This document shows, piece after piece, positions 18,311 to 50,469 of a stretch of DNA of 64,000 bases. Every line of letters begins with the position of its first letter. Within the stretch, counting starts at the first letter, position 1. The notes under the pieces were generated by a model. It was not told the DNA's origin and ran no database searches. It saw nothing but the letters and a program-made list of their open reading frames with translations. Where the stretch lies: NCBI GenBank assembly GCA_002633005.1, contig NMRA01000101.1, forward strand, positions 620,001 to 684,000, in the 5' to 3' direction. The position numbers and the translations under genes are program-made. This DNA comes from Phoronis australis. Taxonomy: Eukaryota > Animalia > Phoronida.

Positions 18311-20699
18311 TTAAGAAAAATAAGTTACGTAACCTCTTCACTTTCCCGCCACTACTTTGTAACCCATGCAGAATCTCCCAATTCCATTTACGTGACGGCA
18401 GATGTAAATTTCAAATAAAAATGTACGCAGTAATGGAGAAGTGGTGACGGACCTGATGAAGAATAGCTCCACCAGATTTTAAAGTGTTTCATCAGCTTCT
18501 GCATTGACAGACCGGCAAGACAGTCCACGAGCAAAGTTCCGTGACGTGATGCCCAACTCTCAGCAGCACTAAGGCGCGAAATCAATTTAATCGTAACCAG
18601 TCGTCAAAAATTGGACGACACTTTAAACATGTGGTCCGAGTTGCGTAAAGCTTCAAAAGTTATCCTCTGAATATGTTTGATTGTTGCATGACGTCAGGTG
18701 GATTATTCAACAATAACAACGTCACGCGTGATAATGCGACGTCCTTGTTGCTATACGGCGTATAACTTTTGTGCAACTGGACCCTGCTTTTTAACCCGTG
18801 TCAAATTCATGCATTCCACGGTCAAATTCAAGTGTTTCATGGCGTTTCGAACTCCTGCGACCGTGACCTTACCATTCCTGATTTTACTACACGGAACGTG
18901 ACACGTGCGTTTTTACTGGCATACAAAACGCTAGCCGTCGAATCTTCAGCTTTCATTGACTAAAATACCCATATTTGCGGCTGCAAAAATTCTCCTTCTC
19001 GGGATTTCTGATAGGCCTTGTCGTGTCGTATATTCGGTCTACACTCGATCAAAACTGTCGAGCAATCAACCGTAAATTCAAAGTGCAAACTCACGAGGCT
19101 AGTCCTGTGAAATCTCTGGTCGCAAGCTCCAACACTAGAGCTCTTGCTAGAAAGCAAGCAGTATTACATATGGAGAATCTTGACAAATCCCCTTTTGTAT
19201 GACCTACATTCTTTAGCAGCCGACGTCACACGCATGGCGTGTGATTTGCCAGAGGTCATGAGAGTTCATGAACCAGGAAGTGTATGTTCGCGATGAGTGT
19301 ACCCTCTGACACAGCGCCACCTACACTGAAAAGTGGCCCTGTGGAAACATGATGAACGGCACGCAAACGCGACCCAGTCGCAAAATAACCTGTTTTTACT
19401 CTCGCGACATCTAGCGACCAGATAGCGTATTTGATGACATGCGCGTCAATAGTCTTCACAAGTGGAGGAGCATTTTGTACAAGAAGTAAACTCTTGCGAT
19501 GGAGGTTTTGTTTTCGAATTGCACGAAATGAGGGATTAGTCAAGTAAGAGTAATTTAAATAAAGCTGTTGAAGGATGAACGGAGTGTTTGAGCGGCTGCA
19601 TTTAAAACGTAATGTCGCAAGATTTGAACAGTCGATAGTATCAGCGAATACTAATTTATTTTTTGTGCACTCAACTTGCTGCACTGCAGTGAGTTGTATT
19701 CTTTGATAATTTGTAAAAACTAAAGGTGTAAACGAAAATAGTTCAACTGCATGGCATTTATGCTTATGATATAACTCGCACATTGCCTATTATTACCTCC
19801 GAGATAAGTAAATGGCTTGTAAGATGCACCCTTTACATATTAATCAGTCTTGCACAGTCGGTCACAAAGTCGATGTTGTTGCATTACTACAATGTTTTGT
19901 CTAATTGACACTGCATGGTTGTCAAGACTTGGGTTTGAAACACCATGTTCACCTCATTGAATTTTTCTATGCCCTAATTACATGCAGTGCAAACATAAAT
20001 CAATTTGCAAATGTGAGGAAGTTGCGGTGCAAATTCCAATGATTTCTGAAGATGTTTCTTTAGTCCAGGTAGTTCTTGTCGGTAATGGAAATGTAAAGAT
20101 TATTACATAAACATTTCATCAGCGTAAACTGAGGTCTCATTCCATTTTCATTTTCTTTCAGATAAATAGTGCGCAATGAAGCCTAAAATCAAAAGTAGAA
20201 TGTAGGCTATTTCAACATTCTGAACACCACAAAACTTAAATTGTAACATGAAATATTGTATTTACCATAAGAGAAAACAACATAGAATTTGTAATTTGCA
20301 GTTGACTCATTATATTTTACATTGCTTCATGAAACATAAATACCATCATTAAGGACCCGTATTTCTAGACATATAATATTAGCATTGATTAAACTTATCT
20401 TTCAAAGCAGGCACCTGCAGAATAAATGAAGTCTCAAACATCTGAGGAAGAATAAAAATTAAATCTGTTTGCTGTTGTGATTAGTTGATAAAATTACAAA
20501 ACGGATACCTATAATAGTAAGTTAAAAGCCAAGATCAGAAACAGACGACGCATTTGAGCCGCATAATGCTGGACAAGGCATATTTTACACAAGGTATATT
20601 AAATGTGAATCAGACATTGAGAATCATCAACAGTTGAGCACAATAAAAATGAATAGGTGTCTAGTTCTTTGAAGAGGTAATTATCTAAAGTCATTCATT

Positions 20700-20900
20700 T
20701 GATTGTATGATGGAGTCACACCTTAGACAAAACCATTCCACCTCAGGGGGAGGTGGATTGTCCTCAGTAACATTAGCACATTTAAAGTGAAACCGGTCGT
20801 AGCACTTGTCACATTGAATGGATGATTCAGTTACCTCATCTGGGTCCTTAAATTCTAATTTTCAAACGGAACAGAAGAAATGTTTCAGGCTTGTTTTTGA
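20700..20900 (-). pseudogene. PHD finger of the MULE polyprotein
   Basis: FCSV*KLEF..SSIQCDKCYDRFHFKCANVTEDNPPPPEVEWFCLRC matches C4HC3; the second Cys position is a TGA stop. Confidence 0.85.
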
Positions 20901-21341
20901 CCTATACTTTGACGGTTTAGAGGAAAGTTTATGCTTTGCAATATTTGCCAAACCAGTTTTTTGGAATTCGACAAGTCTTGTAGTTTTTTTAATAGGAAAG
21001 TGAGACATACGAGACAAACAAGCATCATTTTCCTCAAATGTAGAAGCTGTGATGGATTGCTCTTTGAGATGGTTGCGGAATTCTTGGAGATTTTTGAAAA
21101 TACAATTCACCCCTTCTTTATAACAATACATGCATCTTCGTTTCCTATGCTTGCACTGAATGTGTTTGCTCAGGCCATCCTCATTAGTAAAACAGAATGG
21201 TGTTTTAGCACCTTCTAAGATGCATGTGTTGCATACCTGTAATTCGGAAAGCACATTTGGCACTGGATCATTACAGGAAGTTTTTTTTTTTACAATTTTG
21301 ACTATAATTTTGTGACAGCACAGGCGGTTCACTTGATATGT

Positions 21342-21568
21342 CTAACGAAATGTTAGGGACAGCCAGTGCTTGTGAGCTATTTTCAATTTTTCTTTTTTTG
21401 ATGCCAGAATGTCTCTTCCCATTGCTTTCAATCCAGACTGAACAAATTGGTTAACATTTTTCCTTTTACACGGCCTCTTGGTTCTCCGCCCACAGAACAC
21501 TTCCTTAAACTTGTCTTTGGATGGCAAAATAGGAGGGTAAGGATCATAATTAGATTCAACATGTTCTG
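21342..21568 (-). pseudogene. HMG-box-like segment of the MULE polyprotein
   Basis: KRPCKRKNVNQFVQSGLKAM..KEKLKIAHKHWLSLT resembles the HMG-box pattern PKR..N.F.....K.....W..L. Confidence 0.55.
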
Positions 21569-22785
21569 GGCCCGGTCTCTAATCTTTGTACCCGAAACGA
21601 ACTCGAAACTATTTTTGGCAATTTCTCTGCTCCTTTTGTGCTAACTTAAAGGAGAATGCCACCCAAAAAACAACCTATTTTGTATCAATTTAGATCGATT
21701 AGTTCTACTCCATAACGGCACGTTCGGTTGCGTAACCTGACACCTGACGGTAGACGGAGGTGTTAAAATTATCCAATGACATAATTGGTTTTCACACGCA
21801 GTCTGTTCAGCAGTTCACAAAATGGGTTACTGGTGTCAGCTTATCGCTTGAATTCATCGTTTAACACCAATAAATCATTAAACTTCTATGTAAAACCCTT
21901 AAAAATACACTGAGTTCTTATAATAACGTGTTGTTTTATTTCGCTGTTACGGATTTACTGGTATTTGGACAGAACGTAGCCTACAAAGTTCGGCAGGCCA
22001 ATTTACCAAGGTCCGTTGCAGGAGTTTGAGGTCTGTTCGGAGATAAATTCGAAGTATTCTTCCGTGAAATATAGACAGGAGAACCTAGACCTGTTTTGTT
22101 TATACTTGTGATTTTTTACACAAAACGCTTGTTATCCCGGCCGGTGGCTCGGCGGAACACGATCAGACCTGTCGCGGCCGGAATGACTCGTTATCCCGGT
22201 CAGTGGCTCGGAACCTGATCAGGCCCGTCGCGGCCGCCGGGGCTGGCAAGAACATAAACCAGCTTGAGTTGGAAACTAAGTCTCCAGTCACGAAAAGACT
22301 ATAAGAGCGAGCCAAAGAAATAATGTGCACGTAATTATTTATGTGAATTAGTCACGAAACTGAAAATCTACTTACTTGTCGGGGGCCGCGAAATCGGGTT
22401 CCCCTTCCACAGACCGTCAGGGCAAAGGTTGTTGATTTGAATAATGTATTTTAATTTTGTATTTCTAAATAAAGAGTCCCCTAACATGTGACCATAGCAT
22501 ATAAAATCGAGTAATTGTTTCACAACAGCTTTCTGTCAGCAACACTGAATTAGCATGTGCTCACACGGCCTCGGTGCCCGGTCAATTACCTTTGTTGCCG
22601 GCATCAAAAGCCGGTAACGCAGTGGTTTATTCACTGCTGGCTTCTCAAAACATTTGCACTCACGAGCACTCCAAGGCATTACAAATTGTATCTAATGAGA
22701 CAGACTTTGTTTCAGTTTCATATAAGCATTGGTTAGGATGAGAATAATTGATTTTGAAACAGAACGCAGAATAATAAACGTCTAC

Positions 22786-22950
22786 ATGGCAAGTCGCCGG
22801 GAGCCAATCCCGACTTAGTCAAGAGCTCATCCGACGAAGACTTCACGGGTCGGATCGTTAGGTTTCACACGTTATCAATTCGAACCGGAATACACTGATC
22901 AAGATCTAGAAATACTAGAGAGGCGCTGTGAACATGCACGGGCAACGGAA
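22786..22950 (+). pseudogene. N-terminus of a Kolobok accessory protein (KolX-like)
   Basis: SSDEDF../GFTRYQFEPEYTDQDLEILERR; the acidic YxFEPE N-terminal motif is typical of the Kolobok second ORF. Confidence 0.55.
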
Positions 22951-23204
22951 CGTATGGATAGTTCTTTGGTAAGCCTGAATTCGTCAGAGAAATCACTGTC
23001 GGCGAAATGCCGGCCACTGACACGGAGGTGTTTCACGGCCTCATACTTGATATTAACAGCGTACCTTTCATTCTTCATTACCGCGAGCCACTTCCTAAGC
23101 ATTTCGGGCTCTCGAGGAAGTCGAAAAAACGATATACACGCTTTCTTCGCAGCTGCATAGTTCGGACAAGCGGGAATCATGCACTGCAATATAGCGGCAT
23201 TCAC
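22899..23204 (-). pseudogene. THAP domain (N-terminus of Kolobok transposase)
   Basis: CMIPACPN..SFFRLP....RKW....LRVSGRHFADSDF is a THAP C2CH pattern with the third Cys degenerate. Confidence 0.85.
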
Positions 23205-23679
23205 TCTGCAGACGAACCACTGACGTCGCTGCGTCGTTTCTCACCTTCCTCACAGGTTAACGCGACACCTCTTGGCAAGGTGAGGTCGACCGTATAAGAG
23301 ACGATGGGAATATAGACCGATTAAGATGGTAAAAAAGACTCATTAAATCGGGTGGCATTCTCCTTTAAGATAATTGGTTATCAGACTGTGCTCGAATACA
23401 TTATAGTTTATGCATAGGAGTTTCTAGTTCAAGTTTGCCCTTGAAGACCCTTATATTCGTGCTACAAACTTGATTAAAAGCTCGAAATTTCGAGTTCAAA
23501 CTCGAACTTATTGCTTTGATATTGGGTTTACAAACTGTGAACTAAGGGCAGTAAATTATCTACGTAAGTTTTTATGTACTCGAGCATAGAATAATAGACA
23601 CTTATCTTGAGTTCGCCCAAAAGTAGAGTAGAAAATGCCAAATCTAATTTCGAGTAAAAAGATTGGAGACCGGGCCCTG

Positions 23680-25590
23680 ATAATGGTTTCATTTCAGGTA
23701 ATGGTCCACATTTTCTTCTATACCCGAATTTGTGTGGCATTACTTTGGCTGGTCTCCCTGAAGAAAATTTGTTGCAAATGTAATCAGTGTGTAAAACAGA
23801 TAGGAGTGTTCCGTTCGCCTGCAGCTGTACAAAATCGTCATCAGATATTTCATGACAAATTGACCTTAAATTATCAAACCATAAATCAGAAGTACTTGCA
23901 GTGGATGGGTGTTTGAGGTAGGAAGACAAGTAATCTGGAATATGAGGCACAGTACTCATATACAATTCATATAATTTGTTTTTGCCCTTTTCATGGTTTT
24001 TGAATGATAACACAGCATACAGATGTTTACAAAAATATGGTTGCCCTACCACAATAAATGACAGACAAGTGCAAGTGCACAAATGAATGTTAGAAACATA
24101 GTTTTGGCCAGCCAACAGAGGGTGATACTCTTGAGGGATGTAAAATTTGGTCTTTTCTCTGTCAATTTGAAGCAACATTCCCAACAAATCCTTATTGGTT
24201 CTATTAACTGCAGCATCTGCAGTATACCCATGTTCAGAAATGCTAGTTTGTGACGCAGAATGACTGAAAGTAGAAAACGTGTGAATTATTCTCAGAAGAC
24301 AATTCTGCATCATTCGTAACATTTCTGTTTTTCGTATCAGTAAATACTTTCACTGCATTCACTGGAAACCAAGTACCATCCGCCTACAACAGACCTAACA
24401 TCACTAATATTGAAACTCCGTTAAATGGTATCCATTGACTTTGATTTATGATTGCTTTTCTGCTTTTCTTTGTGCGACTCCATTGTGTGTACAGTACTGC
24501 TTCACGATTTAAAATCGAAGAAATTACAACATTCACAAAGTGGCTCATTTTCCTGTTACACCGACTCTGAAGATCTGATTCTTGAATTTCTTTAAATTTT
24601 CTCTCAGTTATAATATCCGTCAAAATAAGGGGGTTTCTCTTCTCTTCATCTGAAACCAAATATAACACGGAAGATGTATAGGTATCGGTCCACATGCAAT
24701 CAAACCATTGATTATCTAAATAGTGAAAAAAATCCAAACTTGTGGACAGCATTACGGATTAAAGTGGCTTTGTCATGTTGAATTATGGGTTTAAAGGGTT
24801 CTGCTAAAGCACAGGGTCGTAACCAAAAGAAACCATTACCATCATCATAAACATACAATCTTTTGAAATGGGGACATGTTGGATCAGAACATGGCACATT
24901 GGAAGCAATTAATTCCAAAGTTAAAAGCACCGAGGCTTCATTTTCCACATTACAAATGGAGACTGCCCCAATTCTCCCTTTACGATTACTGTCGCAATAT
25001 GTTAATATAGCTGTCTTAAATCGTACAGATATAAAATCATGTTTCACATCAACTGACCCATGTTTCCGTAAGCACAACAAATTTTGTTTGCTTGCTAAAA
25101 CTATATGATAGTCTCTGTTCAAATCCTTATTTCCACGTTGAAAAAAGCACCGACTCATAATTACCCTCAACAAATTTATCTGTGTCCCTCCAATCAGATT
25201 TTATCTCCCTCACATCTCGCTTACACATAGCTAAAGCTATTTAATGCTTATCTGCTACCCTGGTACGCTTTGCAACTTGCCCCTAAGTATGGTAATGTGT
25301 GGTGTTGTTTCCAGACCCAAAGTTTACGGAAATGGCACGTAAATTTGTTGACCGGATACTCTGTGCAGATAATTTACATTCAGATCTCATTCTGTCCCAG
25401 GTAGTCGTTGTGCTAAGTGAGGGTTTCCTTTGAACTTGGATGGGTTGGCTATTGTGGTATTTGTGGTTTTTATTACTTGCATATATAGTGTACGTTTCCA
25501 AATTTGAGCTATTGATTGCAAGCTTCAATTGCCATTTGCATTTAACATGATCATGTTGAATAATTTCTGATTGATCTATAGTTGCCACTC
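23680..25590 (-). pseudogene. MULE DDE transposase with upstream WRKY/FAR1-like finger and downstream SWIM finger, frameshifted
   Basis: KCKWQLKL..NHKYHN; SVDVKHDF (D1); IIQHDKATLIRNAV (D2); FFHYLDNQW; LTDIITERKF (TNNxxE-like E); CTCTCLSF....YFCKHLYAV (SWIM CxC..CxH). Confidence 0.8.
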
Positions 25591-27408
25591 TGTCGATGTT
25601 GTGTTGTCACTTGTATAAATAATAGGTGACGCACCTGAGTTTGTCACTGAAATACCATTTACTAGAGTAATGCCTCTTGCAATTGTCACACTGTTTATAA
25701 ATACAAAGGTCAAGATTACAATTGCTACATACTGTGGTGTTACTGTGTTAAAGGTCCTTGAGCAAAGCTCCACAGTCACTTCTGCATTCATTTGTTTGAG
25801 ATGCACATGTGAGATATGGTATGTAACAATGTTTCCGTTTGTAGAGTCCGCTGTGTATGAAAATTTTCGGTCAAGCCTATTTGTATATGTATTTCCCCAG
25901 TTTTCATGTTCGTTAACAGAGACACGAGGAGTATCCTTGTTGTAAACCTTTAGAGTACATTTTGGCTCAGTGAGTACCAACTTTTGGTTCAGTACAAATG
26001 GAAATGATTCAATGAATTCCAATGCCTCAGAGCCAACACGAACCTTACCCACATCAATCCAGTCAGACTTGGAAGATAGCCATTGTACACATTCCTGGTC
26101 TATAAATGATTGAACTGAACTTAAAATTGCTTCCCAGCTTTCATTATTCCCACATGTGAAATACTTAGATGAAGTTGTACCATTGTGTAAGGAAAATAAA
26201 ATTCTTATTGACCTTTTTAGAAAGGATACTCGCGGTCTTTTTGCAACAATATCTTTTATTTTATCAAAATTGACTTTCTTTAAAAAATGTTTTGGTTCAA
26301 TCATAGATGTAGACATTATGCAAGATGATGATTTGCATTGAACGAAGTCTGTCAGGTCATTATCAATTTTCTTGGTTGTTAGTTTTTGCTGCACTGTAAT
26401 GTCTTTACTGACATTTATGGCTTTCATACTAGTTGGTGAATTAGAATTTCTCCTCTTTGCCTGTTGTTTACCCTTATTTTCCTCAATTGTTTTACCAATT
26501 GTATGTGGCATTACTGGTGTTTGAGTGCTTGGAACACTGCTTGGTGCCCTTGAAGTAGATGGAATTACCGAGTTATTTTTGATGGTGCGTGTTGTGTTGC
26601 TACCCTCTCCCTTTCTATCTAAACTCAGGGAAAGTTTTAGGAAGAGGTTGTCCACAAAAATGTCTTTTTTCACTAGCCAGTTTATTACTACCAAACGACA
26701 ATATTTGGAATGTCCTGAAATATCACGTAAGTACCTCACCTGCCTCACGGTTTCACCTTGGGCAAGTTCGGAAAACACTTTTTTCTTCAAGGCTGCAATC
26801 GCCATCCCCACAACAATAACCGCACCACAGACAGAACCACAGTTTTGTAGAGGATATGATTGAGAACAATATCTGGTACAGGCATGTGATAATTTTCCAT
26901 GGTTATAAACAGTGTCTGAAGGATCGTGAACTAATATAGTTTCAGCAGTCGATTTGCCAAATATATTTAAGAATGTGTCTAGTTGGTATTTGAAATTTTC
27001 TGGAACACCCCATCCATTTGAATCTGCATATGTTAAGACTAGTGAGTGCAAGTCATGTACTGCAAGAGCCCAATGGTTAGCAGAATCACCATTAGCAGCG
27101 GTTTGCAAGTTGGAATCTATGCCAACGTGTACAACAAAAATGAGTTCCCCTTGACAAAGGTCTCCTCTGAATTGTTCAGTAATCTTCTCCTTTAAATTGT
27201 TCAAATCACTAGGAACATTAAATATACAACAAAAGGCATGACTACATTTTTCATTTATCATGTCTGCTAATTTGGAAATGATGAGATCATTCAGCCAGTA
27301 ATCACACATAAGATCAGAAACATCATTAACAAGTAAATTTTCATTATGATTGCGACTACCAAGTTTACTGTTCATAATGTAATCTTCAAAAGACTTTACA
27401 GATGACAC
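25576..27408 (-). CDS. Ulp1/C48-like cysteine protease domain ORF (610 aa open segment of the MULE polyprotein)
   Basis: YWLNDLII, FVVHVG..NHWALAVHDL....YADS and YPLQNCGSVCGAVIV give the His-Asp-Gln-Cys arrangement of Ulp1/SENP proteases. Confidence 0.85.
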   Translation of the reverse strand: MSSVKSFEDYIMNSKLGSRNHNENLLVNDVSDLMCDYWLNDLIISKLADMINEKCSHAFCCIFNVPSDLNNLKEKITEQFRGDLCQGELIFVVHVGIDSNLQTAANGDSANHWALAVHDLHSLVLTYADSNGWGVPENFKYQLDTFLNIFGKSTAETILVHDPSDTVYNHGKLSHACTRYCSQSYPLQNCGSVCGAVIVVGMAIAALKKKVFSELAQGETVRQVRYLRDISGHSKYCRLVVINWLVKKDIFVDNLFLKLSLSLDRKGEGSNTTRTIKNNSVIPSTSRAPSSVPSTQTPVMPHTIGKTIEENKGKQQAKRRNSNSPTSMKAINVSKDITVQQKLTTKKIDNDLTDFVQCKSSSCIMSTSMIEPKHFLKKVNFDKIKDIVAKRPRVSFLKRSIRILFSLHNGTTSSKYFTCGNNESWEAILSSVQSFIDQECVQWLSSKSDWIDVGKVRVGSEALEFIESFPFVLNQKLVLTEPKCTLKVYNKDTPRVSVNEHENWGNTYTNRLDRKFSYTADSTNGNIVTYHISHVHLKQMNAEVTVELCSRTFNTVTPQYVAIVILTFVFINSVTIARGITLVNGISVTNSGASPIIYTSDNTTSTEWQL

Positions 27409-27557
27409 ATCAATAGTTTCTACATACTTCTCTTTCTTGGTGAAGGACTCTATGTCTTGAAACCAAATGTCTTCTTTTTGAACATTAATTTCATCATGAA
27501 AAGGTTATCTAAATACCTTAACCCATTTTTACTAAAAATTCCCATATCATAGTGTAC

Positions 27558-27941
27558 TTAGGTTGCAGTTGGAATTCTTTGTATTATTTTCAATCCTGCT
27601 TCAATTTGACCCTTAGGTGAAATTGTTTGAAGAGATGTTGGATCAGTAAAAATTTGACCGAAAGAAGCAGAAACCCGTGATGAATGCAACACCCCTGGAA
27701 CCTCAATGGTCATGAACTCCCTCCTGTTGAAGACACGAGAAAGAGAAACATACTCACCATACTCACCTTGGTTGTCCTGATCAACATCTTCAACATCAAT
27801 AACTTCCTTACCATCACCACCACCAAACAGTCTTTCTTTTATACCTTGGTCAGCCGTTGCTTGATCCCCCATCATCATGGTATCTTCTCTTTGGCGTACA
27901 AACTTTGTGACAGCCCAGAACACAAGTACTGCTGATGTCAA
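27558..27941 (-). pseudogene. Unnamed conserved domain upstream of Ulp1 (copy 1)
   Basis: GEYGEYVSLSRVFNRREF..FTDPTSLQTISPKGQIEAGLKII; homologous to 41489-41782. Confidence 0.7.
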
Positions 27942-28702
27942 ACAATCCAGTAGTAGATGGTCTTGTTCAATACGCTGCCAACAAAAGTGGTAACTTCAAA
28001 AGATCTATTCAACATAACGAAAAGTAAGCAGGAGTCATTATAAGGTGAAACCTCAACAAGTGCAATCCATTTTAGGTTGCTGCTTTGTGTAACTCAGTCA
28101 CTCATAGTACCAATTTTCCAGAAGAGGATAAAATCCTACCGTTTGAAAACAAAATCCTATCATTGTTTTTGGTTTTGATACATTAATGATACAAATGGAA
28201 AGTTTAAGTGAAATTTAAATTAACCAAGCTACTTTCAAGAAATATGTAGCGTCAATACTAGTAGGCAAGATCCAGATTTTAAATCTGAGTAGACCTGGAG
28301 GTAAAAAAAAATGCCACATAGGTATTCAATATCCAAAAAACTGTGGGTAAAAAATGCATCAATTACAAATTATTAAAATTTTACATAATGCTCCAGTCGC
28401 AGGTGTTGCATTAACTCTTCTGCCGATGCTGCTTCGATACACGTTTTACAGTCACTGGTAAATGCAACTTGAGGGCGACGAGGTCTCTTATGAGTCATGG
28501 TAATTGGTGATACCTCCTCAGCTGCAGGTTGTGGTTCAGCTTGCACTGGATGCACTGCATGGTCATTCTGAAATATAGATAATGCAAAATCTTACTACAA
28601 CGCAGAAGGTAAATTTCTAGGGGTTTAGTCAGGTTAACAAATGGCCACACTAAGAAGCACAAAACTTGGTTAATATGTCCCAAAATCAGTAATGTACACT
28701 AT

Positions 28703-28721
28703 GTGTGTGTGTGTGTGTGTG
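28703..28721. repeat. (GT)n microsatellite
   Basis: TGTGTGTGTGTGTGTGTGC. Confidence 0.9.
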
Positions 28722-30397
28722 CGCATTAAGTGTCCTATGCTGATTAACAATTGTGGTTTTGAAGTGTATTTTCTTCTCTACAGAGATCGTTCCTCTCATC
28801 AGTCAAATTAGCAGTTTACCAGCCTTTCCAAAACCTAATTTATGTACCCCAATTATACGTCCATCAGGAAGATGAATAAGGATGCCATCCACTGTGGCAT
28901 GAGTCAGTGGTCGAAGGCATTCTGTAGGCTTTTTGCGCTGTCTTTTTATCTTTTGGGATTTGCTGAGTCTTGTCTTCACAGTTGTTTTTGGCCGCTTCTT
29001 CTTCAAAGGCATATGAGTCTCGAGAGCAGGTGGAGTTAAAGGTACTCTCATGGCAGTCCATGATGTTGATCCAATAAACAGAGAATTCTGAATACAAAAA
29101 AAATACTAAGAGCCTCAAGTATTTTTGACTAACCAGTTACATGATGTCTCAACGTTATCAAACAATCTTAGACACCGACACGTTTCCCCACAGACAGAAG
29201 GGGAGAGGCTGTCAGTAATGTACTGCAATCTAATATTTTTGTTGTCTACCATTCTACAGTAAATAAATTACACAACCACTGTCTTGATCTAACTAGTTCA
29301 CGTCAGTCAAGAAGTAACTGCTGCTAAGCATAAATGAAATGAAACTTTTAACAAGAACACCAATGTCAGGCAAACTTTAGACATAGACAAGGGTTTGATT
29401 GGTTCTGCCACATCAACCAATAAATGAAACTGATTAAGTTCTTGATGAAAACTTACAACTGACACCATACCAATTACAGACAGATAAATAATAGGAAAAA
29501 TGTAAGCAGTCGTACCCCAACTACTCTAGAGTTAGGGAAAAGTTCAGAGAGATCCTTCTTGGTCTTGCTGACAGCAACGTCTTGAACTATAAAATCAAAA
29601 TATGGTTACGATCAATGCACACATAATTATATTGACTGCTATAGAGACCAGTTTCAGGCAAGATTACTTTCCGTCACCATGAGAATCGCCATTATATATC
29701 TAAATTTGTTTCATTTTATGAGCACTGATTCTTGCTTCTATCCTTATTTTGGTCCAGTTAGATTTACCTGTTTTGATGTAGTGTCACTGTCTGTTCATTT
29801 TGTAATGTCTAAGGCTTCCATATAGCCTGCTTTATCAGATAACTACATGTGTGTGAATGAGAAGTGACATTCCACAGCCTGCTTGGTCAATATTACCATA
29901 TACCAAAAATGATGATACTGCAATTCACCCAACCACAGGATAAAACAGTAGTTGTTGGAATATTATGCTGTAATTGTTGACTTTATTTCTGATGTGAAAA
30001 CCAACCTTGATTATCAATGTTGGGTTTCAAACCCCGAAACTGATAATTGTCAATGCTCTGATTCTTATTAGATGTGATGAAAATTTTCAAACGACTTCAA
30101 ACTGCAATATACCATACACTGTTTCTGGAACAACTTGATGCTTCACAGCATCTGCATACTTCGTTGATGTTTTTCCTTGCAGTGGAATGCTAAAAAGAAA
30201 GCATGAGGTTAATGTTTTATGAGACCCAAAATGGCAAACTAAATTCGTTATACCAAATTTTTTTGTTCTTCTTTGATCAAGAACATGTATTACTACACTT
30301 TTTCACTGACAAAGAAATTCAACACTGCTGTTTTTCAAATTGAAAATTGAGCTGGAAACTAGCACACGTCCAAATAAAAGTGAAACAAGAATACTCA

Positions 30398-33196
30398 CTA
30401 ATTATCAGAGAGTGGTGGAAGTTCTTCCTCTGTCCACATGTAAAATTTGCCGTCTTTTCCTAAAGTCTCACTCACAGTAGTCTTCAAAAACCGATGTAGA
30501 AGTATGTTCCCTTCCCTAGATGGATGAAGTCCGTCCTCTCTGAAAGGTAATAACGAATGTGTTAGGCAAATAGGACAGATTTGTATTGACATGAGTGAAT
30601 AGCACAGTGGAAATGCGGACATGATTGATGCATTTCAAATCTCTAAGATATGAAGGGAGTGAACCATTTTCAAGTGTTAGTACCTGCAAGCCTTTTTTAA
30701 AGTACAGTCAACATCAAAGAATAAGTGCAAACAAAAACAATATTTCAAATCTTAAAAGCAGGAACTGGATGAAAAAATCATAGTCCTAACAACATCAACA
30801 CCAAGGAAAATATGATGAGTTTTGGAATGCAACCCACAACGTAAAAGGCAAAAAATTCCAGGGCTGTACCCATTAAAACCATTTGCAATACATATTATGC
30901 AGCCACGCAGGACTTACACATGATTCTCGTTTTAGTACGAATTACCTTGAAAAAAGTTGAGGAAGTCGATATCTATCGAAGCATGCCGTGTAATTCACGT
31001 AGTACAAGTTGTCGTCTGTCAGTGTCATCTTCCTAACCAGTGGCTCCAGATGGTTTTGGTTTTATGTGTATACTGCAGCTGCATGCCTTTTAAAATGTAC
31101 GTGAAGAAACAGGCTATACATGTACAAACTAAGACACAATTTAAGCAAAATGACACTATCAATTCAAAACAAACGCAATAAGTGAACGGGAAAACTCAGA
31201 AAACACTAGCAAAATGAAAAATTGCGTATCGAGAATGTTGTGAACTAGAATGGAGATTGTGAAACTTAAAACAATAAGTCACTGAAGCTTAAGCTATGCA
31301 AGGAATTGATCAGGCAGCGGGCTACTGGTAGATTATGTGTTATCATGCATGCTTATGAATACAAAATAACTATATCCTATCTTGAATGCACTGTGAAAAA
31401 GGACTTTTCCTGTTGAAATAAAGTACTCTGGATGAAATGGAAGAGCAGATGTGGTAACTGCAACTCAGTGTACACGATGACTTTCATGTCCAAAATCTTG
31501 TAACTTGACTGCTCTGGGACTGCTTACCCAAATCAAAGGTGATTTCAAAGTCTTCAAGAAACGTCTTGGAAGTTCAAGTGTTCAAAATGTGATTATATTC
31601 CACTAGAGATTGTGCACATAAAGAGGATTGTGGATCTTCAGTGAAATACATACTTTCCAGAATTTGAATCTGAATTTGACGGTGTGCCTCAAGCTCGCAC
31701 GCGTATGTATGTGGAATCATGCAGGTTATTAGCAAAAGGAGAACCCACACCGGATGAAGGAGTTAATTGAAAGCAAGAAGTTTAAGGATAGGCACAGCAT
31801 GCAGTGTGGTATAGTAAAGCACTAGCAGGTATTCATTCAGTCACACAAAACTTTACCTGACTGTCAGCTGTAAAACGAACGAACAGTTACATGTTATTAG
31901 TCAGTATTTGCTGCATTGACCAATTATCAACAAAATACTGTACCTTTACATGAAACGTACTGGCAAATACCATTTAATGACATACATTGTAAATGTGTAG
32001 GTAAAAATTTGATTTCATTGTAGAACTGCTTTACAAAGAACCGGTTTCCCTAAGTCCATTAATAGTGTGATATTAAATAATTATAAAGGTAACCCAATTA
32101 AATCAAAAGTGTCCTTCAAATAGACACTTATCCTAGAACAAGTAGCTGCTGGAATGAGTTGTGTATATATTTTAGGGCTCCATGGACACTATTCAAACTA
32201 GTGCAACTAGTGACAACTTACTCGGATTTTGAGGTAGGATACTTTGTTCTAGGGTACCTTGTGCCACTTCTAAATTCTTGAGTGATAGCAAATCTGGGAC
32301 AAGATGGAAGTAATTATCATGTGCGATTGCATACAGACGGGTTTTCTTTTGTGTCCAATATTTGGATCAACTGCTCACTGTCATGCACACAGCGACAACT
32401 TATGTCTACCCTAGTAATTGGATGTGTGTGTGGGTGTGTGTGACCACTGCACTTAAAATTGAGGTAAGTTGCACTTGCTGCTGTGTGGACGAGACTACAA
32501 TGTTCATCGACAGAAGTATCATTGTGGTATTGGGATATTTCTGCAAAGACAACATGGCAATACTGATGACAAAGCAAATGTATTTCCCGGAGCACCACTT
32601 AATAAATTCAATTACTTACTTATCCAAGCGGGGCAGAAGGGATGATACAAATATCGGTCCGTCAAATATTTGTCTTGTCTTGTAAATGTAGATCCATGCT
32701 TGATGGTCGCGTGCAGTCGTCATCAGGTGGTGTCTCTTCGTTATATCATTTGTTCCCGCATGCAGAATTACCGCATAGTACTTTCCTGAGATGTTCATTT
32801 CTAACAGCGAATGAAAAGAGAAATCACTTTGTTAACAAACTTCAGTTAACTTTTGAAAAGCGTGAAATAAAGAATTCCAAAGCCCACGAACTTGATCAGT
32901 GACTTTACTTCATTAAAGAATGACTCCTCAAGTTACTCATAGTTTTCTTATGTTACATGTATGTGCTGGTAATGAAAATAATGTTCCATATTAGAAAGAA
33001 AGAGTTTTACAGAAATAAAAGGCAATATTTAGTTTCATTTCCGGGTTTAAGGATGAAATGTACCTTACTGTACTGTAGTGTTAAACTTACCATCCAAGCA
33101 AAAGCTTACACATTGTCCACTATACACTTCCAAGTCGATGCTGATGGTTCTGTCACTCTTGATGTACTTGAAAATACTATCTGTGATCACCTTAAC
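30398..33196 (-). pseudogene. Spliced SGNH/GDSL hydrolase carried by the MULE (exons about 33196-33091, 32800-32620, 31072-30946, 30540-30398)
   Basis: Block I VITDSIFKY, block II YSG, block III VILHAGTND, SSLLPR, block V FSR|EDGLHP. Introns are GT-AG and the exon 1/2 and 3/4 phases join; one frameshift is needed at exon 3. Confidence 0.8.
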
Positions 33197-34744
33197 CTGG
33201 AATAAATATTTAACTGTTTGTAATACAATCAGTTGTTTCTGTGACAAAGTAATAACATTTCACAAAATTTACAACAGTGTAACTGAAAACCATTCATTGT
33301 TCCAAGCTATCATGTAAAAACTAATGATAATTTAACAAATAGAAGTCTCTCGGCTCTGTGCTATTACACTGTGGTATAGATGTAAATATTTGTATATTAA
33401 GTCCCATTGTGAAACTATCACTTGAGCTAATGTTGACTAGTTAAATCTGAAACACAAACTTAAATAAATTTTACTAATGGTAGTCCACTGTTATCAAAAT
33501 TCCAGTACAACCTGTGTATGGACTGTAAAATACTGTGGCCGATTATGTCATGTAAGCTTATCACTGACAGATTGTCAGTTCCTTACAAGATCAAAGGACA
33601 GGCAATAAGTGGCCGAAATCACAATTAGTTTTTTTCAACAAAGCCCAGACTTGGTAAGAGAAGGTATAGGTAAAGCGTATATTATAAATCAGGGTGTGGG
33701 TAGATACAACAAAAGAAACATTAGCACAAATGCTAATAACACATGTAGATAATTATTTTTACATAGAGGTATAGAAGAAGATATAGTCAAAACCCAAATG
33801 GTTGTAAACATGCTTGTGGAGATTTGTATGAGTCTCTGTTAGTTAGCACACTTCACTTGCAGGTTTCATCGGAGTCACGGTTCGTATCTCTGTGTTTGGG
33901 TAAACTTGGCTATAGCTATACAATTGCCAACATGATGCAAAAGACATGACATGACATCGAAACAGTTCTGGCGCTCACAGTTTTTTCTCAGAAAAGTCGA
34001 AACCACCGCAGTTGAGGTTAGCCATAAAGTACAGAATTGTCGCAGGTCAAACGTCTGGAAGTCTAAAACTGAATTTACATGTATGAGTAACTAGAACATT
34101 TATATATTATGAAAACTAACACCTAACGAACGGTTACCAAGGTAACAAAACAATTTTCTACTCTAGACCTGTAAACACGGAGCTGCAAACTAACGATAAA
34201 TGACATATTAAGCACTACTTAGTAGTTATGGCTATACAAATGTAATCTTGAACACTTTAACAATTAGAAGCAATCGCTAAATTTGTAACAAGACGCGATG
34301 CAGTTAAATGTCGCTTGTAAATTCTCTTTCGATCGCAGTGTTTCTGTATCAGCAAATGCCGGAATCCGTAGGAGGTCAAAGAGCTACATCCGGTAAAATG
34401 CTATCTGGTCGCTAGATGTCGCGAGAGTAAAAAAGGTTATTTTGCGACTGGGTCGTGTTTGCGAACAGCACACAGAATTCCGTATGCCAGCATCAATGCG
34501 CATGCTTTGTCGGAAGTTTATCGATCACTCTCCACAACTTGCCCACGCCTTCTATGCACTACTTGTTTGGGCTTAGCTACGGGATCGGGGTTTTCTGTAT
34601 TTTGTTTTCTTCGATTACTGCCCGTTTTAATAAATTACAACTTCAAGTCAAAGGTGGTCGCCTATAGACCTGATTCAGGCGGCAGACATTAAAGTCCAAA
34701 GCGAGGCTCACTGCAATAAACAAAGCGGAAGTTGGCATTGCGTG

Positions 34745-36670: not shown

Positions 36671-37283
36671 ACGTCACAGGTTCTGACAGTCTGCTCAACA
36701 GTTCACAAGACACTTACTGGTGTCAGCGTATTGTGTGAATTCATCGTTTTGCATCAGTAAATCATCAACATTCGATGTACAGTGTAATCCCCTTACAAAT
36801 CCATCGAGTTTTTTAAATTCAGTTGTTTTATGACGCTGTTCTGTTCAGTGATAAATTAGAAATATTCTTTCGAAGAACATGGCCGTGTGATTTTAGACTT
36901 GCAATTTGATATCAGTTCTAAATTCAAAGCGCCCATTATAATTCTGTGGCTTAGAACTCGATCCGGCCCGTCGACGTCCGGACTGGAGACATTACGAACA
37001 TGAACTAGCCGGGTTAGTCGGCTGCCAAAGTTGAAAACTAAACTTCTAGTCACGAGAGAACTAGACTAGTGAACCAGAGAAATAATGTGCACGGGAGTGT
37101 TTTGATGAATTCGCCGCGAAGGCATGTTTCACTTCCACAGTACCGCACAGGGAAATGGTTTGCAATAACATCTAAATAAAAATTCCTCTAACATCTGACG
37201 ATAGTATATTAAATACAAGTTGATGTGGATATAGACGGATTAAGACAGTAACAAAAACTAATCAAATCGGGTGGCATTCTCTT
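36670..37283 (+). mobile_element. Kolobok fragment (left end missing) inside ISL2EU
   Basis: Similar to 21780-22500; ends AAATCGGGTGGCATTCTCTT|TTAA. Confidence 0.7.
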
Positions 37284-37314
37284 TTAAGGCTATTCTTAGG
37301 ATATTTTCAAATCA

Positions 37315-39850: not shown

Positions 39851-40894
39851 TTAGCCAGTGTTTACGGGAACTATCATAGCGAGCCTCGTTTTGGAACGCG
39901 CCTCTTGTCTGTGTGAATTAGGTCTATACTACATTGTACGTAACAGTAAACTGAAAGGGATTTTCCATATTTCAACCAATGGGAATGACAGAATATTATG
40001 ACGTCGGTTTCATTTCTTTAACCAATGAGAAGCCATGATAAACAAAATTCCACAGTGCTACCTTTCGTAGCACTGTAAAAGAGCGTACGATGAGTGGCAA
40101 ATCTGTGTGGAAAAGAAATCTTTGTGTCCGACGTCGAATCAACTCTGTTTAAAAACCCGTTTTGAAATAATTATCAATATGATATAAAAATTATGATAAA
40201 AGCGTTCAGAAAATCTACAAAGTTGCTGATGTTCGACCTAAATGAGGTTCAATGACATGGTGACCGACAACTAAGTCGGTTAAATAAGCCATTTTTTGCA
40301 GTTCAGTCGTCAAATTTTCAATAAACTTTATTTAATAACTCATTTCACCATGCGGTAAATTTCAGTTCCAACGATGTAAGTCTCGGAGTTGTGGCTAATA
40401 CGACTGAGCGAGTGTCCCTATTTGAAAACAGGTGAATTAGCATTATGAAAATTACTCCGTTATGTCAAAAGGACATAAAAAGCTTTGATATTCACTTTTA
40501 GCTGTTACGTAATCCTCCGTGGTGCTGAGATTAAACATCCTGTCGGATATTTTTCGGTGAGAAGTTTGTAACTATACCTAGCAGTGTAATTTTAGCTTTT
40601 TTAATCAGGCAGTGAGGTGAAATGTACATTCCAATTTTTGCCTATAATTTTGATTATTGGTCAAGTTCAATTATGCTATCTTGTTAAGAAAGCAATTTTT
40701 GCGAGATATTGCCGTGTATTTTCAATGACACCACGTGGTTTTTTCGGGCTAGATTTCTGTTGTTGCGAGACAGCTACTGAACAATACCCAGGCCCATATG
40801 CCATTTAATGTGTTCAATGGGGTTTTGAAAAGAGTCCTTTATAGCCGCCTTAATTATCTTACACAAATTTGTGCATTATTCATTTTTGTTCACA

Positions 40895-41330
40895 ATTTAG
40901 AAACACCATTTGAATACCTCACAGTACCCTGATGGTCGTGAAGAGACGTGGTTTCCTGTATAGACTTCCCCATCCATAGCAACAACTCCGTGAATAAAGA
41001 AACAAAGTTGTCTGGAATTGACCACCCGTTAGTGTCTGCATAGACTAAAGTATAGGCAGCTCACGTCAAATGATTCTCTCGACCATCGCAAATCTTAAGA
41101 AATGTTGACGAGTTGTCATCAATGCCTACATGCATCACAAAGGCAAGTCTACTGCAGCTGACGTCAACACCAAACGTGTCTATTTTCGTTTCGGTCTATC
41201 CAGATCCACTGGCTGATTGAACAATGAACAAAAATTTGAAGAAGAACCGTCATGAACTAAACCATCAATCCTAGACATTAAAAAATCATTAAGTCAGTAA
41301 TCACAAATCAGATCTACAACATCACAGCAA
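40895..41330 (-). pseudogene. Second, degraded Ulp1-like protease, homologous to 26900-27330, truncated before the catalytic Cys
   Basis: DVVDLICDY*LNDFLMS..FCSLFNQPVDL; AFVMHVGIDDN..ENHL..LVYADTNGWSIPDNF; GKSIQETTSLHD. Confidence 0.8.
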
Positions 41331-41488
41331 TGCATCTCCTCATCGAGGAAGTTTTCGTCAAGTTTACAGCTCATCAAAGACTCTTGAAATCTGTCAGTCC
41401 AAGAAACTTCCATAGGTTCCCGGCATTTATAAGAATCGCACAGTTGATGGACATTTTCAAACCACTTTCTTCATGCTTCACCAATGAA

Positions 41489-41782
41489 CTAATGTACATT
41501 GCTTTGAATACATTCAATAGATAACGTAAACCACCTGCTTAACGAAATGATATAGAAGGGAATTTCCGTGGGATTGTCATGGTTACCATTTAACATCTGA
41601 AAGCCTGCTTCAATTTGAGCCTGTGGTGGCATTGTCTGCAAAGTAGTGGTGTCTTCAAATCCCTGATCATACGACAATTTCACATTATTTGATTGTTTAT
41701 CATTAGGAAATGTGAACCTGTCCAACTCATCACGATTTAAAATGTGTGTTAAGAACGTATACTCACCATACCTACCATTCAA
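41489..41782 (-). pseudogene. Unnamed conserved domain upstream of Ulp1 (copy 2)
   Basis: GRYGEYTFLTHILNRDEL..FEDTTTLQTMPPQAQIEAGFQML. Confidence 0.7.
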
Positions 41783-42559
41783 TTTTCCCTCATTTTAAGC
41801 CGTTGTCATCATTCTTTGCGGCACTGGTGTCGGTACCTTCCCTTGCTGATTCGGTGTGTCTTTTAGGGTGCATTGTCTTGCCATCACCACCTCTGTACAT
41901 TCTACCCTCCTGGAAAACGGCACTTCAACAGGAGGAGTAGTTAAACCACATACAGTAAGAACATCAACAGTGTTCTGGATATACTTTAAACACTAGAAAT
42001 ACTGGAAAATGATGATTCTCATCTATTTAATTAGATTTCAAAGTTGCACCCCGACGTTTCATCGTTAAGCTTAATTGCGTCGAATTACATTCATAAGGGT
42101 TTTCCATCTACACGTTTACATAAAATTCTAGAAACAAGAACCTTAATTACTATTGTCAACAACTGATTTCTACAAAAGTATCTTTGGCTTCATGTTGTAC
42201 AGTAAAACTCCATCAGTTCAATTGACGTGGTCAAAGAGAGTAGTCTGTTTTGGAGAGGTGAACATTACATTTAGGAAAGTATTGTTTGGGGAATCATACA
42301 TGGTGATGGTGAAGAAAGTGAGTCAACCCGTCAGGATCAGATAAGATGATCTTCACACAACAGGAACAGGTGGTTGTCTTTTTCACTTTCATAAGGACCT
42401 GTACTAGGCATTGCTGACGACGTGTGTGGTCTATGCCCTGAAACAAGTTCAGAAATGTTTTGAAAATAAAACCATTTATCAAACGCACATTAAAAATAAC
42501 ATATTCTGCAGAGAGCATTGCTAGAATTATGGTGTAAAACAATGTCAAATTTTTACATT

Positions 42560-44050
42560 CATCAATATCTGCTAGCATGCTTCCCTGTGGACACTGATAG
42601 CTTACTCCACTTAGTGGCCCATGTGATCCATAAATACCTGCCGGTCAGAGGGCAACATTTTCAGGTTCGCGTGTATGGTTGACTAGGGATGTCGCATTTT
42701 GGTGGCTTGCTGACTACGTCACGCAGAGCATGCACAGCCTGAGCAGTGTGACACGTTCTTTCCAGCAACAACCTTCGTGGCGAAAACGTGAGAATTGCAA
42801 TCGTCGATCTTTTTGTGATCTTTTTTCAATTAGAAGTTGGATAGCTGGTATTACGTCAAGCGGTACCAAAACCGATACGAACTTCCTACCTTTCCCATGA
42901 AGGTATACCAACTCATATTTCCCTAGCATATACTGCTCAGCCTCGTCGTGCACTGCCTGAGTATAAGAGGCAGGGACCCAAGTATCGTTCATTGCATCTT
43001 CAAACTCACTCAAGAGCATTCTCGACGTTTCTTCTCCACAACGAGCATTAAACGGGGTCAGTCTAGAAACAACCAGACTGCGGAAAAAATGATTTTCTTG
43101 AATTTTAATTCAATTTGTATACTTTGAATGGTGGATTCAATGTACATTTTGAGTTTTTTTACCTCACTCTCTTGAGGGAGTCTTGATGGTACTCTGCCCT
43201 TTTCAAGTGAAATTTTTACATAAATGTGTCTTACTCTAGGCTAGATCTCCGTAGAACTGTGCTCATAAGCTTTTCGGAAATTCTTTAACTCTTTCCTTTT
43301 GTTATCTTCCAGTGTTTCGTCACAGTGGCCATTCAAGGACTTTACAGACTTCAGTATCACTGCGTCTAACAATAGCTTTAGCTCATGTTTTTCGTTATTT
43401 CTGTTGCCTTTTTCAAGCTTCCTTATGGCACATACCATATCATCGGGATGGGACCGAGTTAACATATCTTCGCAGGACTTTTCCATCCCAACTAATTCTT
43501 TGAATTGTTTGAAAAGTCTGGCGATGGTTCGCATTTCGGTCATCACTACTTTTCTTACTTCGTCCTCCTTCCCGTTCTCATGCCGACGAAGATTGAAGTG
43601 GCGGTACCCTATCTTTCGGCAAAGGTCCCGTACTACGTCGTCTTGAAATCGGTTTAGGATGCTCTTGAAGTCTTTGTCTTTGTTGATTGTACCTAATTTA
43701 GAAGAGAGGAGGAGTCTGGGTTTGACAGGAAGTGGCCTTTCAGAATTATACCTGTGCCTATGGAAATGCAAAGTTTTGTAAAACCCCTTACACTCTTCAC
43801 ACACTTCTCAATTGGCTGTCATTCGTCGATTGTCGTTCCCGCATGCCTGGGTTTTCTTCTGCCTGCATATTTTTCACGTTAAATACATAGATCCCATCTT
43901 TCCGAACCCGATTGAAGAATGCGTTTTGGGATGATGCATCTTTTAACAAAATGTCACCAAGCTCGTCCTTATGGTTTCTCATCATGTGGCGCTTTAACTT
44001 ACCAATTTTAACTACAGTTTTACAATACTCGCAATTAAAGGGCATTACAG
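42560..44050 (-). pseudogene. Crypton-like tyrosine recombinase with N-terminal C2H2-like fingers, decayed
   Basis: CEYC..KLKRHMMRNHKDE; CEECKGFY...HRH; SRLTPFNARCGEE (R box); HGKGRKFVSVLVP (K); ATKMRH; FMDHMGH; YQCP (catalytic Tyr). Confidence 0.8.
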
Positions 44051-44569
44051 GAACTGGCCTTATTTTGTATTTCCGACAGCTAAACAAGAGGTTATTATGC
44101 TTCTTTTAGTAAATTTACTAAAAGAAGTATTTATACCCACTTACAAGAATCCGGCATCTTACACTGCGCTTTATTACTCAGGCAAAATACGTACTGATTT
44201 GTGTGATTGGATATGTTTTTGTGGTTTCTTCTCATTCTGCATTGGAACTGAAAAAAAAATTGGTAAATTCAATTTCATGTTGAACACAAGTATTGTTCTT
44301 AATGAATGCCATAGCTAGGAGTAAAAGTGCATGATTAATGAAATTTCTTTTCTACAGTGAACATTGATTAGAGTCGAATGTTTTTTATTGTTTTCAAAAA
44401 TTTTCAGACATTTGACAACATTTAGTGCTCCAAAACGTCAATCCAAACATACTTGTATTTACCTTAACTGAGACAAACTGTTGAACAGCCACCTTCGTAT
44501 TTAAAACTTATATCACTCATAATTCATTTTGAAAAGTTCATTCGACATGCGGTCATGTGAAATCAAATC

Positions 44570-45461
44570 ATTCCATGGTAAAAGTCTTGACAATATAGTA
44601 GGATCATCAAAATACTGTCTTGTCCTAGTGATCTACATGCGATGGTCCTCTTGCAAGTCCTTCAGGTGGGCATAACTGGCAGTGTTGTTGGTTCCGGCAT
44701 GGAGAACGACAGCATGTGGCTGGGGTGAGGGGATACATTTTGCTGAAAAATGTTGTAGTTCGACTGGCATTTAACTTCGAGTAGACTTTAAAATGTCACG
44801 CCACCGGGCTGTTCTGCTAGTCACCTTATCGTGAAACATATCAATATGCATAGTTAGCAACTCTGGGAGTCAACCGACCTGCCACTGACCATGCCCATCA
44901 CAGCTATTAAAGTGAAGACTAGTGCAATAAATGTCATTTACTTGCATGATTCCCCCACCAAAAGAAATTAAAATGAATATCGGATCTGTTGACTCCCATT
45001 TAGTGACGATGCACCCACATAACACCAGTATATAGCTGAGCTGAAGCATACTGTACAATCATTAATTTTAGTCATATTTTATTTGGTCATTTTCACCCAA
45101 ATCGATGTACATGCGCACAGCTTTGCACCAAGGCTAAGCCCAATGCAGCACCATCTTTGGAAAGCATCGTAGTACAGTGTTAATGGATATTCATCTCTAC
45201 CAACACTCAACTTGGGAGCTTGTTCCAGTTTGAAGTTTGTAATTAAGACTTACTGTACTTATGACTTGACATAATTTGAATGACATGAAGGCATAAAATC
45301 CTGATCTAAGATATTGCGTCAACGACCCCAGTAATGAATCAGTAGCTTGCACATACCTGCAGCTTATGTAGTCACTTTTCTTCCTGGTTTTGCAATCATC
45401 TTTACATCCACATCACTTGTTGATCTGACATACTTCAGGATACTATCAGTAACAATCAAAC
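44570..45461 (-). pseudogene. Second spliced SGNH hydrolase (exons 45461-45357 and 44742-about 44570)
   Basis: LIVTDSILKYVRS..AKPG; AVVLHAGTNN..HLKDLQEDHR..TRQYFDDP..SRLLP; same intron position and phase as the MULE copy. No block V (DGLH) exon found. Confidence 0.75.
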
Positions 45462-48714: not shown

Positions 48715-48879
48715 GTAAGGGCTACAGCAAAAGACATCGGTGAGTTGACATGTTCTAGCAATTGCTATCAGCCTATTGCCACACATCCTCGTTAGATAGT
48801 AGTCACGGCAGTGCACATGCCGTAATGATGAAATGATGCTTCGCATAAAGTGACAGTACAACTTTGGGCGATGCTTTAA

Positions 48880-50185: not shown

Positions 50186-50469
50186 TTAAATCTTCTAAAT
50201 GGATCCCCGAACTTGTATTTATATGAGATACTAAACGCTTTTAGTCAACGGATATAACTGCAACCAGATTTAAAATATCGACCTTGAACTTAGCAACCAT
50301 CGATATCTTGAATACAAATGCAATGTTTATTCGATTTCTGGGTAGTAGTGTTATTTGTTCGATTTATTTATACTCATGAAAAAAAGTTGCGAGTCAGTTT
50401 GAAAAGTTGTTGCAAACTTGGCTAAATCGGGAGGCCTTACTCACATTTTGGTTAATGATCCGACGGTTG

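Follow-up and report, generated by a model that had tools for sequence, protein, structure and literature searches.

What does a protease of the Ulp1 fold do when it lies in the same gene as a transposase? This question is raised by a 15.1-kb Mutator-like element (MULE) in the phoronid Phoronis australis, which we analysed within a window of 64,000 nucleotides (GenBank assembly GCA_002633005.1, contig NMRA01000101.1, positions 620,001 to 684,000; all coordinates below are those of the window). An earlier note, made from the letters of the window, had described the element as an animal MULE with a chromatin and SUMO toolkit; a processed polyprotein was absent from that description. On balance we lean towards a family of MULEs of marine invertebrates in which a spliced gene would encode one protein of about 2,200 residues, with a Ulp1-fold protease that likely cuts it after a conserved Gly-Gly.

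The locus is a MULE bounded by terminal inverted repeats (TIRs), a target site duplication (TSD) and reads from empty sites. The 64-bp TIRs, 97% identical over 65 columns (E 1e-23), enclose positions 19363-34462, in agreement with the repeats of about 65 bp and the length of about 15 kb first proposed, and the 9-bp TSD, also proposed before, consists of two 9-mers alike at 8 of 9 positions, which occurs among random pairs of the window at a frequency of 2.9e-4. Reads bridging 19358 to 34470 are present in all three RNA runs (7, 5 and 14 reads), and contigs joining the two flanks in three of four DNA runs, those three being from one sample; we read them as further copies of the flanking repeat without the insertion, rather than as products of splicing. 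This copy of the MULE is dead, since its transposase reading frame has in-frame stops, at least four frame changes, a deletion of about 65 residues in the DDE domain and a nested insertion. Contig depth, which is no measure of copy number here, is close to that of a single copy in the core of the element and rises at its ends, and a deletion joint at 24303-30416 appears in two DNA runs. RNA depth across the body is 0-6 (three runs, each read to about one fifth).

The architecture of the family is best seen in its relatives. A phmmer search of 1.84 billion representatives returned 363 matches with E no higher than 0.001, and the analysis drew on the best 150. The seven best range from 1,719 to 2,251 residues, and the six of these that were mapped are all colinear with the window. 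Named relatives belong to a limpet (6 models), a ribbon worm (11 models), crabs, a mantis shrimp and a shrimp, all of them marine invertebrates. The ribbon-worm RefSeq model P0162, of 2,196 residues, has an SGNH hydrolase at its N-terminus, followed by C2H2, a triple or quadruple glycine, the Ulp1-fold protease, a repeat, a WRKY-GCM1 finger, DDE, SWIM, two C2H2 fingers and, at the C-terminus, a PHD finger. The single former polyprotein suspected in the earlier note is confirmed by this model, with the correction that the 5' part is spliced and not merely a series of broken open reading frames (ORFs). Pairs of copies 99.9% identical at separate loci, in the limpet and in the ribbon worm, suggest recent activity of the family. 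On the window itself, a Pfam scan of the kind that note had proposed detects its PHD and SWIM fingers (scores in the table) but not Peptidase_C48, an HMG box or SGNH; the DDE and SGNH pieces give no Pfam match, and these two domains and the Ulp1-type protease, all named before, are confirmed through relatives.

In an alignment of 86 protease sequences the catalytic His is retained in all 86, Asp in 85, the oxyanion Gln in 83 and Cys in 84, with an aromatic residue after the catalytic His in 85; a further His-His-Cys-Cys set (83, 69, 85 and 83 of 86) suggests a zinc insert. The window protease keeps its catalytic residues, and a stop and a frameshift interrupt its N-terminal subdomain. The best PDB match of the family profile is yeast Ulp1 (4.7e-9), and the closest folds to a structural model (predicted local confidence, pLDDT, 91) are SENP1, Ulp1 and SENP2 (best 5e-9, against 1e-6 for a NEDD8 protease), at 13-18% identity and a TM-score of about 0.5. 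With an E value of 0.1 or lower, 27 of the 86 members match Pfam Peptidase_C48 (best 8e-5), and the window domain is not among them. At such identity and TM-score the substrate cannot be inferred, and SUMO specificity is unreadable from sequence or fold; of the chromatin and SUMO toolkit, the SGNH, Ulp1-like and PHD cargo stands, whereas the HMG box fails.

The protease is preceded by a conserved glycine site. Once 19 near-duplicate cluster members and matches with fewer than 110 upstream residues were dropped, 8 of the 16 remaining non-redundant matches had Gly-Gly-Gly 100-137 residues upstream of the protease model, and one more had Gly-Gly only, against 0 of 176 and 16 of 176 background windows, respectively. 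The window protease falls in a clade (SH-aLRT 98.8) with 64 of the 120 domains of the tree; 12 of the 20 clade members listed have at least 130 residues upstream, and eight of these 12 carry the triple glycine, namely eight of the nine with the catalytic Cys and none of the three without it. The window and a sister relic nearby both read Gly-Gly-Asp-Gly-Lys at this site, and P0010, with a shorter N-terminus, reads Gln-Thr-Gly-Gly-Gly, which we take to resemble the tail of SUMO. In the window, P0162, P0046 and P0004, and not in P0006, P0007, P0009 and P0010, the glycines are followed by an acidic stretch that resembles a SUMO-interacting motif (SIM). Because the triple glycine is conserved before the protease and its presence tracks the catalytic Cys, self-processing is favoured over deSUMOylation, or beside it, and self-cleavage of the polyprotein at the glycines is likely.

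Precedents for such processing exist in the literature. A viral member of the SUMO-protease family, pS273R, cuts its own polyproteins at Gly-Gly-X (PMC8728581) and represents a working analogue; the window protease differs in its transposon context and in a fold closer to SENP/Ulp1, and its cleavage is only predicted. More generally, di-glycine sites flank the cuts of viral polyproteins (PMC9741609, PMC8728581), and polyprotein processing was already proposed for OTU-bearing MULEs (PMC1702500).

Upstream of the glycines, four predicted exons carry SGNH blocks I, II, III and V (Ser, Gly, Asn and Asp-x-x-His), and the exon chain, a hand-picked model, keeps an open frame over 404 residues, starting at the third SGNH exon and reaching the protease exon, with one break earlier. 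The window SGNH aligns to that of the ribbon worm with a score of 105, compared with 29.5 +/- 4.5 for shuffled sequences (maximum 47 of 500). In P0164, another relative, Pfam Lipase_GDSL_2 matches above cut-off (1.4e-9), and the nearest matches to a relative's SGNH are Oskar OSK (0.002) and the ZfL2-1 ORF1 esterase (0.013), both weak. That the SGNH might be a nested fragment of a long interspersed nuclear element (LINE) was considered and rejected in view of its GT-AG introns and its fusion in a relative. The sister relic, outside the element, is decayed and truncated after the protease, with no DDE behind it, and its ends were not found. Between its SGNH and its protease lies a broken, unrelated-looking ORF (42600-44105, minus strand) with a C2H2-like finger and no Pfam support, whose motifs, in our estimation, recall a Crypton-type tyrosine recombinase; it is either a nested element or part of a recombinase element that shares the SGNH-protease module.

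Downstream of the protease, the DDE core of the window lacks about 65 residues that include the CxxH motif with its His block, and the alignment of relatives retains D1, the Glu after strand 3, D2, CxxH and the Glu helix. For the structural model of the relative P0016 (mean pLDDT 68), the best fold match is ISCth4 (Foldseek E 2.7e-3; VIA Z 12.0, root-mean-square deviation 4.5, 237 aligned), presumably an IS256/Mutator family member, and Hermes comes second (Z 9.2). Pfam MULE remains below cut-off in all family members scanned (best 0.033). The RNase H-type DDE domain of the relatives, with its helical insert and a D-D-E spacing in which a Glu comes after strand 3 and a His after strand 5, fits the published definition of MULEs (PMC1702500), as do the WRKY-GCM1-type finger before the core and the C-terminal SWIM finger after it; TIRs, TSD, spacing, SWIM and fold match together agree with the family assignment of the earlier note. 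Its WRKY/FAR1-like finger is retained as WRKY-GCM1-type, by motif pattern and with no profile match; it had overlooked the GATA finger (about 25610-25700) that lies, along with a ribbon of four Cys, in the long insert of the WRKY-GCM1-type finger. The GATA finger shows the pattern C-x2-C-x17/18-C-x2-C with a central Trp and has lost its fourth Cys in the window; the family profile matches GATA-3 at 2e-13, and Pfam GATA stays below cut-off in members (best 4e-6). Also missed were the two C-terminal C2H2 fingers, the triple glycine, the 2.1-kb nested insertion and the DDE deletion.

Several observations weigh against the predicted self-processing of the polyprotein. The cut-off of 130 residues was picked after the data had been seen and the clade members are not independent, with two sister pairs among them, so the association between glycines and Cys is a lead and not a statistic. 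P0012 has an intact Cys and no triple glycine, P0057 has a dead Cys and retains Arg-Gly-Gly, and the site is absent in four matches of the other protease clade that have 110-135 upstream residues; the glycines could also act as a flexible hinge. As for the long gene, the exon chain of the window is hand-picked and has one frame break, and none of its splice joints is among the 15 of 88 RNA joints listed. The SGNH fusion is seen in one intact species and the two window relics only; the limpet, crab and mantis-shrimp models start downstream of SGNH, and the ribbon-worm N-terminus and SGNH as queries returned no further species in word-based searches, which are nearly blind here.

The main alternative, which we consider less likely, is that the protease is mainly a deSUMOylase that lifts SUMO from chromatin or transposase to evade silencing, the glycines being a mere linker. 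It fits the SUMO proteases as nearest structures, the acidic SIM-like stretch in four of the sequences, the role of SUMO in piRNA silencing described in part of the literature, and the plant Vandal elements, which carry Ulp1 and evade silencing, the role of Ulp1 there being unknown (PMC13317346). However, the distance from Ulp1/SENP leaves its substrate uninferable, the SIM-like stretch is missing in four other members, and the tracking between triple glycine and catalytic Cys is left unexplained. The two activities are not mutually exclusive, and a protease that cuts its own polyprotein could deSUMOylate as well. It is improbable, in turn, that the SGNH and N-terminal exons are passenger cargo or the product of fused gene models, with no role in transposition: even though the examined models of limpet, crab and mantis shrimp lack SGNH, and the ribbon-worm models include some with SGNH alone as well as an isoform lacking it, the window element, the sister relic and the ribbon worm all have SGNH upstream of the protease with its catalytic blocks kept, in three lineages so diverged that their SGNH domains are about 23-38% identical, and the exon chain is open into the protease exon.

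Far less probable still is an element of the Zisupton/KDZ, Kolobok or hAT type. The weak Pfam MULE scores and the second place of Hermes would allow it, whereas the 9-bp TSD, the D-D-E spacing, the WRKY-GCM1-type and SWIM fingers and the first place of ISCth4 point to a MULE. The KDZ catalytic domain, CxC modules and SAP, which we take to be hallmarks of Zisupton/KDZ, gave no Pfam match with E of 0.05 or lower among 25 relatives.

Returning to self-processing, the mechanism that we propose would start from a spliced MULE gene yielding a single polyprotein of about 2,200 residues. Its protease would cut after the conserved Gly-Gly, freeing the SGNH esterase-C2H2 piece from the protease-transposase, and the esterase, once set free, may have lipids or membranes as its targets, like the esterases of retrotransposons to which it is related. 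With the same specificity for di-glycine, the active site of the protease may also strip SUMO or other ubiquitin-like tags from host proteins or from the transposase. On the basis of established MULE biology, the WRKY-GCM1/GATA module would bind the TIRs and the DDE-SWIM core would excise and insert the element, with its 9-bp TSD. The PHD finger may dock on histone H3. More tentatively, and with somewhat less than even confidence, we can picture an animal cut-and-paste lineage that would mature as viruses do, with its own SUMO-protease-like enzyme cutting the polyprotein at a mimic of the ubiquitin tail and freeing a retrotransposon-type esterase, and with a GATA finger grafted in the WRKY-GCM1 finger reading DNA; derivatives in crabs and shrimp would have lost the cut site and mostly the catalytic Cys.

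Table. Features of the MULE, its nested insertions and the sister relic, by position in the window.
Feature	Position	Strand	Remarks
Left TSD	19354..19362	.	9 bp; 8/9 identical to 34463-34471
Left TIR	19363..19426	+	64 bp; 97% complementary to right TIR
PHD finger	20694..20880	-	Pfam PHD 1e-9; codon of second Cys is a stop; Arg at position of cage Trp
Two C2H2-type fingers	21039..21236	-	conserved in relatives (tblastn, alignment)
DPY-P, basic, single-helix segment (earlier "HMG-like box")	21345..21567	-	conserved in relatives
Nested non-autonomous element	21569..23676	.	2.1 kb; short inverted ends, CTG duplication
Second nested element	21646..23368	.	TTAA-flanked; THAP fragment 22902-23240 (Pfam THAP 6e-10)
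SWIM finger and conserved block after it	23678..24349	-	SWIM 24020-24079, Pfam 8e-5
MULE DDE core	24387..25146	-	D1 25036-50, D2 24769-80, E 24594-611
WRKY-GCM1-type finger with insert	25500..26000	-	motif pattern; Cys-rich ribbon and GATA; broken by stops and frameshift
Unnamed repeat of ~70 residues, one unit	26060..26290	-	two units in most relatives, many in shrimp genes
CE-clan (Ulp1/SENP-fold) cysteine protease	26640..27760	-	His-Asp-Cys and oxyanion Gln intact; conserved His/Cys insert
Triple-glycine motif	27813-27827, within 27786..27827	-	predicted self-cleavage site; acidic SIM-like stretch follows
Linker exons and C2H2 exon (28385..30189)	30189-30113, 29586-29516, 29087-28848; C2H2 28567-28385	-	GT-AG; phases fit
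SGNH hydrolase, four predicted exons (30399..33196)	33196-33091, 32800-32620, 32540-32453, 30539-30399	-	GT-AG; one frame break
Right TIR	34400..34462	-	pairs with left TIR, 97%
Right TSD	34463..34471	.	9 bp; 8/9 identical to left TSD
Sister relic, outside the element	40884..45460	-	SGNH exons, Gly-Gly-Asp-Gly-Lys site, same protease (34-42% identical)

The C-terminal part of the gene differs from its first description. The HMG-like box is rejected: no HMG box was matched by Pfam in the window pieces and 43 relatives, nor was one among 41 PDB matches at E up to 10, and the residues most like an HMG helix are unconserved. Instead, the family motif that aligns to this segment comprises Asp-Pro-Tyr-x-Pro, a run of basic residues and a single helix, and the structural model of a relative has one helix there, at low confidence. 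The PHD finger, by comparison, was rightly named; the Trp of what we assume to be its methyl-lysine cage is retained in four of the six relatives shown, which makes histone reading plausible.

The first nested element, presumably Harbinger-like by its terminal signatures, interrupts the transposase gene after SWIM, with the reading frame continuing uninterrupted from one flank to the other; it shows loose ends and high depth in RNA and DNA runs. The second lies inside the first, is taken to be Kolobok-like on the same grounds, and has joints at 21646-23367 in RNA and DNA runs. As the THAP fragment is located within it, THAP was discarded as cargo of the MULE. More copies of this TTAA-flanked element lie at 9643-10484 and 36687-37288, and its family is heavily covered in the RNA runs. 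Elsewhere in the window, fragments with matches to THAP, HTH_Tnp_4 and DDE_Tnp_4 (37592-39812, minus strand) represent a decayed Harbinger-type transposase, and a 1.3-kb element with inverted arms of about 300 bp holds a THAP ORF (48870-50195).

Beyond the intact copies, the family includes diverged members. Crab members lack catalytic residues in the protease as well as in the DDE; two further relatives are devoid of DDE and carry many repeat units. The crab and shrimp genes P0012, P0019, P0004 and P0153-P0156 derive from this MULE family, with the DDE lost or dead and the protease mostly dead; they look domesticated and would be candidate DNA-binding proteins. In two crab or shrimp genes the repeat unit is multiplied to about a dozen copies. 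This repeat of about 70 residues had no library match and no usable ESM Atlas match, and a 642-residue ORF of the window likewise had no usable ESM Atlas match and one match in a word-based protein search, a method nearly blind here. The same protease subfamily is found at the N-terminus in a second lineage of MULEs, which Pfam MULE matches and which has C2H2 fingers (P0027, P0050), and in two to four tandem copies in P0002, P0018, P0024 and P0036, where no transposase was seen.

Animal MULEs with Ulp1 and PHD are already published, and the combination was in this respect less unfamiliar than first thought. Bao et al. in 2010 (PMC2836005) described Ulp1-bearing MuDR/Mutator elements from hydra and the lancelet, and the figure concerned also aligns PHD; these and Ginger1, which has Ulp1 and PHD, share with our family the fusion of DDE transposase and Ulp1-type protease, with PHD in some. 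In Ginger1, however, the protease is C-terminal, whereas here it is N-terminal to the transposase, and the accessible part of that paper mentions no SGNH, GATA or glycine site in its elements. The insert-type WRKY-GCM1 MULEs of Babu et al. in 2006 (PMC1702500) likewise have an insert between cysteines, DDE, SWIM and, in some, PHD; in contrast, our insert holds a GATA finger, SGNH is present and the protease belongs to the CE clan. The sole mention of GATA in the accessible text of that paper is unrelated to the insert.

By description, Rehavkus (Dupeyron et al. 2019, PMC6446971) is also alike in its 9-bp TSD, TIRs and PHD finger; it has a subterminal minisatellite, and the main text, as far as available, lists PHD for it and mentions no Ulp or peptidase. 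Motifs of our family had no match in the text of the three supplements of that study, apparently tables and a tree. Plant Kaonashi/Vandal MULEs also carry Ulp1, with a proposed anti-silencing role (PMC13317346), but are non-TIR elements with Ulp1 in a separate gene, whereas our family has TIRs and Ulp1 in the transposase. SGNH esterases have been described in LINE ORF1 (PMC3905857), in the texim of Helitrons (PMC4021074) and in Terminons; those of LINE ORF1 and texim belong to the same fold family, which is here fused to a cut-and-paste DDE transposase. No description of SGNH or GATA within a MULE was found in the literature, Repbase and subscription papers lying beyond the search; the one paper to bring Mutator, SGNH and transposase together names SGNH in a cited reference alone. 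The architecture is divergent and, in the literature searched, apparently undescribed.

Proteases of the Ulp1 type turn up repeatedly in Mutator, Ginger and Crypton elements, and the literature consulted gives their role as unknown or as a guess. With a candidate cut site that tracks the catalytic Cys and with near-identical intact copies, this family offers a direct test of that role. It also places the esterase of retrotransposons and Helitrons in the gene of a cut-and-paste transposase, and its GATA finger inside the DNA-binding domain of a transposase bears on the exchange of domains between transcription factors and transposons.

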